From: an uncultured Verrucomicrobiae bacterium
GTDB taxonomy: Bacteria; Verrucomicrobiota; Verrucomicrobiia; Chthoniobacterales; UBA10450
Length of the DNA: 64,000 nt
Direction of reading: 5' to 3'
Assembly (NCBI GenBank): GCA_963726745.1
Contig: CAVSDR010000003.1
Span: 1,024,001-1,088,000 of the forward strand
The notes under the pieces are model-generated. The model searched no databases. It worked only from the letters and a program-made list of their open reading frames with translations, and was not told the origin of the DNA. Made by a program: the position numbers and the translations under genes. Below are positions 36,921-45,654 of the stretch, piece after piece. Positions within the stretch are counted from its first letter, which is position 1. Every line of letters begins with the position of its first letter.

Positions 36921-37652
36921 TCAGCGGTGCCGACGCTCGCCTGGAAGCGGCGGTGGCGTGTTCTTTTTCAACGGCGTGGCCGCGTCGTCTTCGGGCGCGA
37001 ACTCGAACGACTCTTTGGCGATCGGCTGGTTCACCGTGATCTCGCGGTGCGTTTCCTCCATTCGGTAGCCGCTGTAGAGGGCCACGATTTTGCGGACCAG
37101 GTGATCGTCTCGCCCGATCCAGACATCGTAGGGATCGCTCTGCCAGACGCCATGAACTTGCTGGCAAAGGACGCCATCGATCGTCTCCTCGCCGACGATT
37201 GCAGCCTCGTCGAGTTGATGCAGCCGGCGCGGGCCACCATAGCTGCTCTCGAGGAGACTCGGGATGTGATAGGCGTAAGTGCCGAACATTTTCGAGCCGG
37301 CCAGCTGCACCTTCGCGCGAGATTTCACCGGCTGCGTGGTGCCCCAGGTGCGGATGCTGTCGCCATTCGCCCAGAGGACTTCACGCGTTGGTTTCTCGGT
37401 GCCGCCGCCCGGGGCCTTGGTCACAGCGTCGATCCGGAAAAGCGCCGGCCGTTGGAACCAAATGCGGTAATCTACCTGGGCGCCGGCGGCGCCGTCGGGA
37501 TTGGTGAAATGCGCCGTGCTCGTGTCGGTGTAGGACGAAAGGGCGGCGTAGGTTTGCTCCATCGTGCGCAGGAGCGCGGTCGCGGCCTCGTCGGCGCGGA
37601 TCCCGCGCGCGCTCAGGCAAAGGAGAAGGCAAAAGAGAATTGCGCGGCGCAT
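36921..37652 (-). CDS. Periplasmic LolA-like fold protein (DUF2092-like)
   Basis: Signal peptide MRRAILFCLLLCLSARGIRA; MEQTYAALSSY, WFQRPALFRID, GEETIDGVLC, VWIGRDDHLVRKI, NQPIAKESFEF. Confidence 0.75.
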   Translation of the reverse strand: MRRAILFCLLLCLSARGIRADEAATALLRTMEQTYAALSSYTDTSTAHFTNPDGAAGAQVDYRIWFQRPALFRIDAVTKAPGGGTEKPTREVLWANGDSIRTWGTTQPVKSRAKVQLAGSKMFGTYAYHIPSLLESSYGGPRRLHQLDEAAIVGEETIDGVLCQQVHGVWQSDPYDVWIGRDDHLVRKIVALYSGYRMEETHREITVNQPIAKESFEFAPEDDAATPLKKNTPPPLPGERRHR

Positions 37653-37708: not shown

Positions 37709-38297
37709 CTAACGAGCGGCGCGCTTCTTGACCCGGCGGCGGGCGGCGCTTTTTCGCGGCCGCCGGCTCGGTGCGCGCGCGCAGGCCCACTTGCATGTGC
37801 GGGAAGCCGATCACACGCAGAATCGCGTGATACTCGTGCCCGAGGCGGAAGAGATCGGGCAGCGGTAGGGTGCAAGCGACGGTGCGCTCCGCCCGCGGCG
37901 CGAGCTCAAAGGATTCCGGGGCCACGACCGCTTCCACGCGCACGGTTTCCTCGCCATCGTCGCGCACAAACTCGGAGAGCTCGAAGCGAATCGCCGCGGT
38001 CGCGCCGGTGGTGTTGGCCACGAGAAAGTTGTGCGTCTGCGCGCTCCCGATCGGACCTTCGAAGACGAGTTCCTGTGCCGCCGTGACTTCTGGCGGCGGG
38101 CCGCAGGGCGTCGCCTCCACGGTGAAGAGATTGCGGTAGAAACTCTGCGAAAGATGAAGCCCCACGTTCCAAACCTCGCGGTAATAGTTGAGGCTAAGCT
38201 GCGTCACTTTCTGGAAAGCGACCGGCGCTTCTGCGCGCCAGAATTCCGCATAGCGCTGCGGGAGCGAAGTGATCTCGGGAGGGGCGGACTCTTTCAT
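37709..38297 (-). CDS. Hypothetical protein D of four-gene cluster (N-terminal helix, Ig-like domain, basic tail); 1-nt frameshift near 37752
   Basis: ATG 38297 MKESAPPEITSLPQRYAEFWR...HNFLVANTTGATAAIRFELSEF...VAPESFELAPRAERTVACTL...YHAILRVIG; removing one A from the A5 run gives KSAARRRVKKRAAR-TAG at 37709. Confidence 0.6.
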
Positions 38298-38965
38298 TTG
38301 GCTGCGCTTGCGGTCGTCGTTGGGGTTAGGGCGCACCGGCTGGAAGCAGGGCTCGGTGCATTGAAAATGCCGATACCAATCATCCGCGCGGATGCGTTGC
38401 GGGATCGCGCCCATCTCCAGCCGGCAACACGGCTCAGCTTCCGCGCTCACCTGCACCCGCAGGCAAAGGCAGCGCTCGTAAAGCCCGCGCACGAGAATCT
38501 CCGACTCGTAGGTTTCGCCTGCGCGCCACGTCTCGTCGGTGGAGAAAGAAACGCGCATCGATTGCGCTCCGCCGGCGGGAAGCGTCGCGCCTTTGGGCTC
38601 GACTTGCGGGCGCTGCTCGAGCGTTTCGCGGCAGGAGCGGAAAGGCGACGCCTCGAAGCCATATTGCACCCGCTCGTCGGCAGTGTTCCGCAGTTGAAAA
38701 TAGCCGACACGCTGGTCGCCCGGCGCCACCGTCCACTCGAGCGTGCAGGCGCAGCGCGGCGGGCAGGTGGTCTCGGGAATTTCGCAACCGCAACGCGCCG
38801 CCTCGACTGCGCCGGTGAAGAAACGGCTGTAGGCCTCGAACCAAGGCTGCAGCCCGCGCAGGGAAACGCGGAGCGCCTCGTTGTTCAGATCCGTGAGGCG
38901 CTGCACGAAATCGGGCGCGCCGGGAAGAACGCCGGGGCGCCGGCGCAGGATGGCTCTGGGTTCAT
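38294..38965 (-). CDS. Cys-rich hypothetical protein C of four-gene cluster (Ig-like core); frameshift near 38915
   Basis: AAGGAG RBS and ATGA overlap at 38962-38965; CGCEIPETTCPPRCAC...FQLRNT...VEPKGATLPAGG...DDWYRHFQCTEPCF; a second ATGA at 38294-38297 suggests the boundary with D. Confidence 0.65.
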
Positions 38966-39734
38966 AGGGTCTCCTTGGTGCCGGCTTTCTCGGTCGTGTA
39001 GATGTCGACCGTGAGCGTGGCGTTGTAGAGTTCGAGGAGCGCGCGGTAGTGGCGCGCCGGCTTGATGTCGTCGGGTAATTCAAAACGAGCGACCATCGCG
39101 CGGCGTTCGCCCGGCTGGAGGATGACGCGCTCGCGGTGCACCCGCAACGGGCCGACCTGCGCGCGGCCGACATCGTCGAGCACCCGCTCGAGACGCTGCT
39201 TGAGCTCCACGCCCACGTTTTTGCGCAGCCCTTCCTGGAAGCGCGGCAAAGAAGTCGAGCGAGTCGAGCAGCGGCGCTTCGCAGAGCGCGCCCAGCGGGA
39301 GCGGGACGTTGCCGGCATTCTCGGCGATGAACTCGCGCTCGAGCGTGCGTTTGCCGCCGGCCAGGAGCGTGACCGTGGTCGGCTCGATGCGGAAATCGAC
39401 CTGCTCGACCACGTGCGCCTCGACCGCCACGGTGCGGCCGCCCACGTCCATCTCCAATTCGTAAAGCCCGGGCGCGGTCCCGTCGCCTAACGAGAGCTCG
39501 AGCGGGACCAGCGCCTGTTCGCCCGGTTGCAGGCGCGCGCCCAGGTGCAACAAAGCGCCGTCTAATTTCTCCGCGCTCCTGGCCCCTTTCCGCGGGCGCA
39601 GGGAAACGCTCCGGAGCTTGAGCTTCTCGCGTGGAATCATTCCGCAGGTGGAGCTGGCCGCGGAGCGCCTGCGGCGGACCGGCGACGACCAGAGTGTCGC
39701 GACCGGTTTTAAGCGTGGGTGCGGGGGTGGCCAT
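38962..39734 (-). CDS. Hypothetical protein B of four-gene cluster (two Ig-like modules); frameshifts near 39630 and 39243
   Basis: Stitched from three frames: MATPAPTLKTGRDTLVVAGPPQALRGQLHLRND / EKLKLRSVSL...LQPGEQALVPLELSLGDGTAPGLYEL...FIAENAGNVPL / FQEGLRK...LQPGERRAMVARFELPDDIKPARHYRALLELYNATLTVDI. Confidence 0.7.
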
Positions 39735-39753
39735 CGGAACGCTCCATCTGCGA

Positions 39754-40146
39754 TCAGCGGCAAACCTCCGTTGCCCGCGGTTGATATTTCTCGTTGATCA
39801 CCTGGCTCTCCCCGCAGAGCGCGAGCTTCCAGATTTCCACGCCGAAAAGACAAAACGCGACCTGGTAATGCGCCGGCAAATGCACCCGCGTCTCGGGGAT
39901 TTCCTTGAGGGCGATGTTCAGGTTGCTGTTGGTGTCCACCCGCATGGTCGGCAATTCCTTCACCGAGATGTTCGAGTTGAAGGTCATCACCGGGACTTCC
40001 TTCACGCGCAGGACGACGTCCGGCACTTCCTTCACGTGGATGTTATCGAGGTCGCTATCGACCTGGATGGTGCTGCCGGGCAGGCCACCGAACTTGACCG
40101 TGTAATCCTTGGGAATGTTTACGCTGCCGCCGCCGCCTTTAGCCAT
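39754..40146 (-). CDS. Hypothetical protein A of four-gene cluster with repeated (V/L)KE(V/L/I)P motifs
   Basis: 130-aa intact ORF; VKEVP, VKEVP, VKELP, LKEIP; C-terminal HLPAHYQVAFCLFGVEIWKLALCGESQVI. Confidence 0.8.
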   Translation of the reverse strand: MAKGGGGSVNIPKDYTVKFGGLPGSTIQVDSDLDNIHVKEVPDVVLRVKEVPVMTFNSNISVKELPTMRVDTNSNLNIALKEIPETRVHLPAHYQVAFCLFGVEIWKLALCGESQVINEKYQPRATEVCR

Positions 40147-40298: not shown

Positions 40299-41266
40299 AT
40301 GCCGCCGCCCGCCATCCGCCAAGCCTTCGTTCTCGGGGCCGGGCTGGGCCTGCGGCTCCGGCCGCTGACCGCGGATTTGCCGAAGCCGCTGGTGCCGATC
40401 TTCCAGAAGCCGCTGATCTCTTTTGCCTTCGACCATTTGATCGCGGCCGGCGTGGAGCGCTTTTGCGTGAACACGCACCATCAGCCGCAAGGTTTCGACG
40501 AAGCCTTCCCGGACGGGACCTACCGCGGGCGAGCGCTCCGGTTCCGGCACGAGCCGGTGCTGCTCGAGACGGGCGGCGGGATCGCGAATGTCGCGGACCT
40601 GCTGGGCGGCGAGCCGTTCCTGGTCTACAACGCCGACATTCTTTCCGACCTGCCGCTGGCGCCGCTCCTGGAGGAACACGCGCGCGCCGGGAACATGGTC
40701 ACGCTTGCGCTCCGCTCGCACGAAGGTCCGCGGCACGTGGCCTTCGATCGCGCCACCGGACGCGTGCTCGATATTCGCAATCTCGCAGGCACCGGCGCCG
40801 TCGACGAATTTATCTTCAGCGGCATCTACGTAGTGCAGCCGGAGTTTCTGCGCCTGCTCCAGCCCGGTGTGAAGCGGTCGGTCATCCCGACATTCATCGA
40901 AATGCTTCGCGGCGCCGGCCGCCTCGGCGGCGTCCTCCTCGACGAGGGTTCGTGGTGGGATGTGGGCACGCGCGCGGCCTATCTGGAATTGCATCGCGCA
41001 TTGCCCACGCTCGACTTCCCGCGCTACGGCGCGCCGGACGCAAACTGGCGGGCCGCGGTGCATCCCTCGGCGAAATTAGCCAGCGAGATCGAATTGCTGC
41101 GGGAGCACTGTCATCGGCGCGAGACGCAGAGGTCGGCGCCGGGGCGAAATTAGCCGACACCATCGTCTGGGCCGGGGCACAAATCGCTTCCCGCAGCGAC
41201 CTGCGTGGCTGTATCGTCCGCGCCCGCCAAACCGCCCAAGGAACCCTGCGTGACACCGACATCTAG
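40299..41266 (+). CDS. Sugar-phosphate nucleotidyltransferase (MurU/mannose-1-P guanylyltransferase-like); frameshift near 41100-41125
   Basis: AFVLGAGLGLRLRPLTADLPKPLVP, LLETGGGI, VYNADI, WWDVGT; short hexapeptide C-terminus in the next frame. Confidence 0.88.
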
Positions 41267-43468: not shown

Positions 43469-45654
43469 ATGAAGCTCCCACTCCGTCGGTCGCTCGCTTT
43501 CGCCGCCCTCCTGCTCCCGCTGGTGGCCATCCCATCGCTCCAGGCGAGGTCCGATCTCGAGCAGGTCGAGGTTTCCGTCGGTCGTCTCCTCGAGGAAGGA
43601 CATTACACCCATCAACCGCTAAACGATGAGGTCTCGAAGAAATTCCTCAAGACTTACCTGGAGCTGCTCGATTTCAGCCACCTCTTTTTTACCCAGCAAG
43701 ATGTCGATGCGTTGACCGCGAAATACGGCACCTCGCTCGATGACGATATTCTCCTGGGAAACCTCAAGCCGGCCTACGAAATCTACGAGCTTTACCAGAA
43801 GCGCGTGGATGACCGCGTGGCCTGGGTGAAGGAGTCGCTCAAGAATCCGCCGAAGGAATTCAAGGGCGACGCAACGATTGAACTGAGCCGGCAAAAAGCG
43901 CCCTGGCCGAAAGATGCGGCGCCGACGCCGACGGGATTTGGACTGCGCGGATCAATAATGAGCTTCTCCAGGAGAAACTGAGCGAGCATCCGATCGAGCC
44001 CGGCCCGCAGTTGATCGCCCGCCGTTACGAGCGCCTCCAGCGCAACGTCCACGAGGAAGACCAACCGGAGCAGGTGAAGCTCTTCCTGGCGGCGCTCGCG
44101 CAAACCTACGACCCGCACTCGGAATACCTGAGCAAGGCCGACCTGAAGAACTTCAGCATTAACATGGGCCTCTCGCTGGTCGGCATCGGCGCGATGCTCC
44201 GCACGGAAGACGGCTACGCCAAGATCGAGAGCCTCGTTCCCGGCGGCCCGGCGCAGCGTCATGGTGGGATAAAAGTAGGCGACCGGATCACCGCAGTGGC
44301 GCAAGGCCCGGCGGACTTCGCCGATGTGCGTGACATGCGGCTGGACAAGGTCGTGGAAATGATTCGCGGCAAGAAAGGCACAAAAGTGCGCCTGCTCCTC
44401 ATTCCCTCGGATGCGGCCGATCCTTCGAAGCGCAAAACGATCGAGCTGGTGCGCGACGAAATTAAGCTGAAAGACCAGGAAGCGCGCGCGGACATCATCA
44501 TCAAGAAAGACCGCAACGGCGATCCGGTGAAGCTCGGCTGGATTACGCTCCCGTCGTTCTACGCCGACATGGAGCGCCACCAGAAGAGCACCACCAAGGA
44601 CGTGCTCGCGCTTTTGAATCGCCTCAAGAAAGAGAAGATCGGCGGCCTCGTGATCGATCTCCGGCGCAATGGCGGCGGCTCGCTCGAGGAAGCGATTTCG
44701 CTTACCGGCTTGTTCCTGAAGTCCGGCCCGATCGTCCAGACGAAAGGCTCCAACGGGAACATCGTCGTCTCGAGTGATCCCGATCCGGGCGTGGCCTACA
44801 CGGGTCCGTTGGTTGTCCTGACCAGCCGGCAAAGTGCCAGCGCGAGCGAAATTTTCGCCGCGGCGCTGCAGGATTACGGCCGCGCGCTCATCGTGGGCGA
44901 CAAGAACACCTTCGGCAAAGGGACCGTCCAGACCATCCTTGAGATCGGCCGTTTCACTTCGCTTTTAGGCAGCGCCTCGAAGGAAGACGGCGCGCTCAAG
45001 CTCACCATCCAAAAGTTCTACCGCGTCGCCGGCGGCTCCACGCAGCTCAACGGCGTCGCTTCCGATATCGTCCTGCCGTCGCTCACCGACCTCCCGGAGT
45101 TCGGCGAAGGCTCACTCAAAAACGCGCTCCCGTATGATGAAGTGCCGAAGGCGCGCTTCTCCATGTGGTCCGAGCCGCCGACAGTTTACCTCGATGAACT
45201 TAAGCGCCGCTCGAACGGTCGCATCCAGGAGAACCCGGAGTTTCATTACGTCATGGAAGACATGGAGCGGTTGCGGAAGAAGATCGATGAGAACCGCATC
45301 TCCTTGAACGAGGACCTTCGCCGCTCCGAGCTGAACGAAGACAAGGAGCGCAAGGAAGCGCGCTCAAAAGATCGTCTGGCGCGCGCGAACGATGACACCA
45401 AGACCTACCGGATCACGCTCGATAACGTCGACAAGCCGAACCTGCAGCTCGTGACCTTGCCGGCAAAAACCGCCGATGCCAAGAAGAGCACAACTGCCCC
45501 GGAAGTCGCAGACGACCCGGATAGCGAGCTCACTGGCAGCGACGGCAAAGACCCCGCGCTCGATCCGACGCGCGACGAGGCTTTGAACATCGTAGCCGAC
45601 ATCGTCGATCTCAGCGCCGGTCCGAAAACTGCGAGCGTGGCCCCGGCAAAGTAA
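43469..45654 (+). CDS. prc: Tail-specific (carboxy-terminal processing) protease, S41A; frameshift near 43920-43950
   Basis: YDPHSEYL, GIGAML PDZ, DLRRNGGGSL, SASASEIFAAALQDY, TFGKGTVQ, KFYRVAGGSTQ. Confidence 0.92.

Follow-up and report, generated by a model that had tools for sequence, protein, structure and literature searches.

On the minus strand of the window (the whole 64,000-nucleotide stretch of an uncultured Verrucomicrobiae bacterium, contig CAVSDR010000003.1, that was analysed), positions 37709-40146 resolve into four genes, here termed A, B, C and D, when the open reading frames (ORFs) are followed. This cassette is a real, widespread and unannotated four-gene system which occurs in a strong lipid context and whose predicted role is structural. 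Gene A (39754..40146, minus strand, as are all features below) is an intact frame of 130 residues with KE[VLI]P beta-repeats in its N-terminal part, and, after these, a long beta-hairpin of hydrophobic character in which the CGE and ExC motifs are invariant. After a gap of 19 nt, gene B (38962..39734; about 257 residues) encodes two immunoglobulin (Ig)-like sandwiches, the second of which carries an amphipathic helical insert. Gene C (38294..38965; about 222 residues) has an amphipathic N-terminal helix, Cys motifs and an Ig domain of the ASH/HYDIN type; it is preceded by an AAGGAG ribosome-binding site (38971..38976), and its ATG at 38965 overlaps the stop of B as ATGA (38965-38962). Gene D (37709..38297; about 195 residues) has amphipathic phasin-like helices, an Ig domain paralogous to that of C and a basic tail, although its 3' end requires one further unconfirmed indel. 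Neither a sigma-70 site nor a convincing terminator was found at the cassette.

In the assembled sequence this arrangement is concealed by a 937-residue ORF. The original prediction that this ORF is a chimera of four genes was borne out, and it also contains, in frame, an unrelated DUF2092 gene (36921..37652), which lies outside the cassette and has no tblastn match in the related loci L002-L032. Gene B is spread over three frames (39734-39624, 39640-39243 and 39240-38965, with shifts near 39634 and 39240), but it is a single intact ORF in 66 related loci, and L002 holds an intact version of the cassette. Gene C is shifted near 38930 and, owing to an extra base at 38300, reads without a stop into D, which in turn continues into the DUF2092 gene. 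A near-identical 168-nt public contig of run X1 (4 mismatches, 1 gap) has one base fewer at 38300, which turns the C/D junction (38294..38300), fused in the assembly, back into an ATGA stop-start overlap. C and D share one open frame in 0/79 related loci, and together with the X1 contig this rules out a natural C-D fusion. The ATGA junctions claimed earlier thus hold for B/C, and for C/D if the base at 38300 is absent, but not for A/B. Similarly, the Lys/Arg tail ascribed to D is found in homologs, with a net charge of at least +6 in 30/70, whereas in the window the stop at 37709 and the tail (RRRVKKRAAR) lie in another frame, and the further indel needed to reach them is covered by no contig compared. 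D in the window also lacks a first helix of about 40 residues that is present in homologs. The 937-residue ORF is a chimera produced by about five single-base indels, most of them likely assembly errors. A nucleotidyltransferase gene (40299-41266) and a Prc/Tsp protease gene (43469-45654) flanking the cassette carry one frameshift each (near 41090 and 43930), which points to a poorly polished stretch and makes local assembly error the likelier cause of the indels.

Related loci comprise 31 from a genome scan, from 12 phyla as labelled in the records, and 63 from metagenomes. Genes A, B and C are present in 31/31 genome loci and D in 27/31, and the order A-B-C(-D) on one strand is kept in 30 of them, the other being L017, where A-B is inverted. 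Among metagenome loci with room on the contig, A and B lie upstream in 28/28 and D downstream in 43/44. Since all four orthologs are syntenic across phyla, the cassette is more than a chance association. Profile searches returned 502 homologs of A, and for C, which has 13 close homologs, 311 matches at E<=1e-3 and 60 at 1e-30, the weaker ones including D-sized proteins and long Ig-repeat proteins. Distribution is patchy: the cassette occurs in 0/60 relatives of this genome and in 9/301 genomes of one acidobacterial class; it was not found in viral contigs, nor were A and B found in plasmids. Gene A is also present in cultured Hahella ganghwensis (WP_020405576.1) and Hahella sp. CCB-MM4 (WP_094712256.1), where A alone was looked up. 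In L017, L068, L075, L081 and L082, A-B and C-D form two divergently oriented pairs, separated by polyprenyl synthase and isopentenyl diphosphate (IPP) isomerase genes, which suggests that A+B and C+D form sub-units. No curated family cut-off was reached by any of the four proteins and no description of the cassette was found in the literature searched (most subscription papers and all supplements lay outside the search), in agreement with the earlier statement that it belongs to no named system.

Gene A matches no Pfam or NCBIfam family above cut-off, Atlas gave unnamed clusters only, and a search of PDB sequences with the A profile returned nothing informative. Its four KE[VLI]P repeats, anticipated from the sequence and confirmed there, lie at residues 39, 49, 63 and 81 (residues 39-84; 39895..40032); homologs carry 0-7 copies of a loosened motif, with a median of 2. 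Two Cys residues are invariant. The AlphaFold model is poor (pLDDT 61, pTM 0.24) and confident only in a predicted two-strand C-terminal hairpin (residues 86-118; 39793..39891), as might be expected of a protein that depends on partners. A fold search with this model gave one match at Z 2.1, which carries no fold verdict, and a complex prediction of A+B+C+D from L002 (score 0.00, mark 0.32) counts neither for nor against co-assembly. The reported lack of transmembrane helices and signal peptides was judged here by hydrophobicity windows only: the KD19 value reaches 1.6 in 1/66, 0/76 and 1/70 homologs of B, C and D, and in 14/63 homologs of A.

Although B, C and D likewise match no Pfam or NCBIfam family above cut-off, several lines of comparison support their being paralogous Ig sandwiches of the ASH/HYDIN type (PapD/ASH-like), as had been proposed from strand motifs that are all present in the sequence. 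Profile-profile links (hhalign) reach 98.2% for C-D (158 columns, helices included), 95.9% for B-D and 93.5% for B-C. Homologs of C give matches, below cut-off, to PF22544 (HYDIN/VesB/CFA65 Ig; 10/61, best 1e-6), fn3_5 (9/61) and Ig_CFAP65_4th (5/61). The Ig domain of C is flanked by the motifs CCxIPETxCPPRCxC and RIRAxxWYxHFQCxExC, and eight Cys and one His of this protein are 92-100% conserved. The amphipathic N-terminal helices foreseen for C and D were recovered as a prediction, the helical moment exceeding that of shuffled sequences (z>2) in 42/60 C and 51/70 D proteins. In three loci of Myxococcota type (L029, L032 and L105), D is absent and C has a duplicated Ig domain; these loci adjoin an animal-type haem peroxidase gene, joined in L029 and L032 by one for a DyP peroxidase.

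The context of the cassette was determined from 143/281 flanking ORFs of 29 genome loci plus further sets (L003 and L027 were omitted as near-duplicates), with module counts from profiles built on these same loci. A lipid-type partner lies beside the cassette in 28/31 genome loci. The commonest, module I (15/31 loci), is centred on an IdsA/GGPPS-like polyprenyl synthase, accompanied by a 340-residue protein with the CrtC/tocopherol-cyclase fold (13/31), IPP isomerase (6) and SCP2-like proteins (6), one of which matches PF02036 at E 1e-3. Fold comparison places the 340-residue protein at TM 0.72-0.76 to CrtC and tocopherol-cyclase clusters; a search of PDB sequences with its profile gave nothing informative. 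By our own estimate (two synthase genes in 3.4 Mb), a synthase would fall in a 16-kb window by chance about 1% of the time. In L014, L017, L018, L019 and L031 the synthases have an N-terminal extension of about 220 residues, SCP2-like by eye and without a Pfam match, and a conserved gene of about 200 residues follows. A second synthase clade pairs with a geranylgeranyl-reductase-like enzyme beside divergent cassette copies (L026, L124 and L128).

Module II (9/31 loci) combines DUF362, an HpnA/SdmB-like short-chain dehydrogenase/reductase (SDR; below cut-off), a START-like protein (DUF2505, weak) and a 7-bladed propeller. An ABC1 kinase gene, found at 5/31 loci, joins this module in four; in L011 ABC1 is accompanied by a B12 radical SAM protein, a Coq4-like protein and an SDR. 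Other combinations include a gene of the diacylglycerol (DAG)-kinase family between C and D in L016, with a glycyl radical enzyme and DUF362 nearby; haem peroxidase and DyP in two Myxococcota loci, one of which (L032) also has patatin and PAP2; and a type I polyketide synthase (PKS) with a methyltransferase, adjoining divergent B-A-C' copies. In two such copies (L126:1358-9844 and L127:7221-15678), which contain Cys/His-rich tracts, a facing D-like gene and a single-module PKS (KS-AT-KR-ACP-MT) were seen. The propeller is of a generic 7-bladed fold (top Z 28.6 to a YVTN propeller, root-mean-square deviation 2.8, 286 aligned residues, with lactonases within 2 Z), and its profile found nothing informative among PDB sequences. 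Its identification as a carotenoid oxygenase, from a C-terminal GFHH motif, is not favoured, as ACO ranked 45th in Foldseek and outside the top 50 of a second fold search. Members of a distant propeller clade (L047-L051) have as neighbours either genes for a GMC oxidoreductase and a metallophosphoesterase or a gene for a papain-like protease, with no cassette nearby.

In the source genome (G000; 94.7% complete) the cassette itself sits among housekeeping genes, and a copy of module II lies on the same contig 575 kb away (G000:C3:485150-489932; L033:9094-13936). Its four genes read without frameshifts and are 45-61% identical to those beside the cassette in L012. In trees restricted to genome loci with complete genes (29/31 for A; 26/31 for C, a quick tree), A of the window is placed, at 100/100, in a clade together with six cassettes of module-II type that come from Acidobacteriota, Gammaproteobacteria and Fibrobacterota. 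None of the 31 genomes has both module II (present in 9) and the CrtC-fold gene (present in 13), and the propeller, like A, is found in 0/60 relatives of G000. Of the 301 sampled genomes, 7 have the propeller, 9 have A and 5 have both; the close propeller clade is represented in 2 of these 5 genomes, while the remaining three appear to be close relatives, with a distant propeller located elsewhere. The DUF362 protein of the G000 module has, by eye, a START-like C-terminal part; the propeller of the module is His-rich, and the module stands as a highly conserved pathway of its own. A short amphipathic, phasin-looking ORF in two frames without a Pfam match (L033:8629-9076) lies directly upstream of DUF362, and small amphipathic ORFs also stand by the cassette in L026, L124 and L128, 64-95% alike among themselves and about 25% to the L033 ORF. 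Adjoining the module, L033:1000-8140 holds a sigma-54 activator, an HlyD-like protein, a cyclic nucleotide (cNMP)/peptidase ABC exporter and small ORFs, which by eye resemble a peptide-export system. G000 also has a squalene-hopene cyclase gene (G000:C6:156835-157788), so that hopanoids are among the candidate substrates of the HpnA-like module.

Taken from sequence and gene context, the reading we favour, with a probability of roughly 0.45, is that A-D may form the coat or scaffold of a cytoplasmic lipid inclusion, other than one of polyhydroxyalkanoate (PHA), holding the water-insoluble product of the partner pathway. The original prediction had left open a filament, a cage or a granule coat; the lipid-enzyme neighbours make the coat the best supported of these, while a filament found no support. 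In such a body the phasin-like amphipathic helices of C and D would hold these two proteins to the droplet surface, with the Ig domains displayed, and B, which has two Ig domains as well as an amphipathic insert, would link them to one another. Protein A might assemble into polymers by way of the variable beta-repeats and the hydrophobic hairpin and so seed or stiffen the coat, metal or disulfide bonds formed by the conserved Cys/His motifs in A and C could fix the lattice, and the basic tail of D might tether the body to the nucleoid in the manner of PhaF. The cargo module in G000 would be the DUF362/HpnA-like SDR/START-like/beta-propeller cluster described above, whose product is likely a modified isoprenoid, a hopanoid or another neutral lipid. 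The droplet is probably not PHA, as PhaC_N is found in only 8/32 cassette genomes and not in G000. A more far-reaching version, which we regard as somewhat less probable, is that of a horizontally mobile organelle kit, in which an ordered Ig lattice, closed by Cys residues and nucleated by A, would surround a lipid core and any hydrophobic pathway (isoprenoid, polyketide or oxylipin-like) could be plugged in; such a kit would be a hybrid of lipid droplet and protein shell, distributed over at least 12 phyla.

Several observations weigh against a lipid-inclusion coat. No clear lipid partner adjoins the cassette at three of the 31 loci: at L030 there is none at all, the SDR and MMPL genes of L010 are on the opposite strand, and the IspH gene of L013 occupies its usual ileS-lspA neighbourhood. 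Owing to their common descent, the 15 polyprenyl-synthase loci do not count as independent events, so that the stronger argument comes from the several unrelated modules; these differ in chemistry, however, and the glycyl radical enzyme, DyP and DUF362 would suit a closed shell equally. Phasin_2 is weak in D proteins (2/26 and 1/54, best E 2.2e-4, none in D of the window) and a PDB profile search with the D helices matched mainly designed helical bundles, from which the helices of D may be generic amphipathic ones. Distant propeller homologs occur without A in 2/5 genomes tested, so that distant clade does not require the cassette. WS/DGAT (PF03007) was found in only 3/32 genomes and not in G000, by a search that matched 0/14 control genomes, and triacylglycerol (TAG) or wax is thus probably not the general cargo. 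The established droplet coats (phasins, fibrillins) are not known to need a four-gene Ig set.

Among known systems, the phasins PhaF and PhaI of PHA granules in Pseudomonas putida resemble C and D in the amphipathic helical N-terminal region and D in the basic C-terminal tail, PhaF being described in PMC5658603 as joining an amphipathic helix to a basic tail that binds DNA. They lack the ASH-type Ig domain that C and D carry in addition, nothing in them corresponds to A or B, and no PHA synthase adjoins the cassette. No phasin Pfam family was matched above cut-off among A-D, and no PHA synthase was found in G000 (neither PhaC_N nor the class III TIGR01836); membership of a PHA granule was rejected. 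Plastoglobules and cyanoglobules offer a likeness at the level of gene neighbours: PMC12923008 gives cyanoglobules ABC1K3, SDRs, a methyltransferase, fibrillin and prenyl lipids, and the cassette has ABC1 kinase, SDRs, methyltransferases, prenyl-lipid enzymes and a tocopherol-cyclase-like fold as neighbours. However, PAP_fibrillin matched neither A-D nor their homologs, the hosts are not cyanobacterial, and the cassette forms one dedicated mobile unit with enzymes. The ASH/HYDIN-VesB-CFA65 domains (PF22544, PF15780) match the sandwich of C below cut-off, and related Ig domains in the C profile search lie within repeat proteins of 600-4200 residues, whereas the small cassette proteins have one or two such domains each, combined with amphipathic helices and Cys motifs, and no predicted signal peptide. 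GvpA was not matched by A-D; a search of G000 gave none either, although no control genome matched. The cassette is new as a gene system, while its likely job resembles that of known droplet coats.

Two other assemblies could account for the same genes, and both are unlikely in our estimate. A-D might build a closed protein nanocompartment, following the logic of encapsulins or bacterial microcompartments (BMCs) with an unrelated fold, which would enclose the neighbouring enzymes and confine hydrophobic, reactive or oxygen-sensitive chemistry. Fixed structural genes with swappable enzymes are indeed the encapsulin pattern, down to DyP (Family 1) and terpene or polyprenyl cargo (Family 2B): DyP is the commonest Family 1 cargo and a polyprenyl transferase is also carried, according to PMC8346489, NF041169 is a below-cut-off match of the neighbouring synthases, a glycyl radical enzyme and Fe-S-type DUF362 adjoin the L016 cassette, and G000 has no Linocin_M18 encapsulin. 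Yet ABC1 kinase, PAP2, the DAG-kinase family and SCP2-like and START-like proteins act at membranes or lipid surfaces and would be poor lumen cargo, and the long amphipathic helices of C and D indicate a lipid surface. Encapsulins are defined by the HK97 fold in the same source, whereas the cassette has four genes rather than one or two, encoding Ig sandwiches (B, C and D) and a hairpin protein (A); no HK97 or BMC family was matched among A-D and homologs, and B, C and D match Ig-like families and no encapsulin family, the SrpI-like search having no positive control. Slightly less probable still is a peripheral inner-membrane scaffold or lipid shuttle, which would cluster enzymes and move their product within or off the membrane with no discrete droplet. 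The amphipathic helices and the hairpin of A could bind a bilayer, the neighbouring genes include START-like and SCP2-like carriers as well as ABC1 kinases, and ASH/MSP domains serve as membrane-traffic adaptors in eukaryotes; but no transporter is found among the conserved neighbours, and the basic tail of D and the extra stand-alone amphipathic proteins of some loci would be left unexplained.

The conserved residues could instead mark an assembly for metal storage or redox sensing based on Cys and His, with the lipid genes as secondary passengers. The metal or redox responsiveness suggested earlier has as its sole basis these residues in C, the two invariant Cys in A and the other Cys/His-rich tracts of divergent copies. 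Since the recurring neighbours include no metal transporter, chaperone or metalloregulator, and since divergent copies keep the Ig domains and the lipid context but carry other sequence in place of the motifs, this explanation appears very improbable. A separate question, for this copy only and whatever the function of the family, is whether the cluster is a recently broken pseudogene. With at least 4 indels in 2.4 kb against a background of 3 in 33 kb (0.09 per kb over 33 other gene matches; Poisson P ~1e-4), and with the four partner genes unshifted, the copy could be decaying, which would also count against an inclusion coat in this organism. However, there are no nonsense codons, the invariant residues are retained, and both the X1 contig and the shifted flanking genes speak for a locally poor consensus, so that decay is rather doubtful.

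The coats of only a few bacterial storage bodies are known (PHA granules, TAG droplets and cyanoglobules), and the protein shells known so far use HK97 or BMC folds. If the lipid-inclusion reading is true, a mobile four-gene Ig kit recurring with at least five different lipid pathways would constitute a new class of organelle and would give cytoplasmic ASH-type domains a bacterial role. It would also flag several uncharacterised lipid pathways, namely the DUF362-SDR-START-propeller module and the IdsA-like synthase with the CrtC-fold enzyme, and it may provide a 2.4-kb module for terpene storage in engineered cells.

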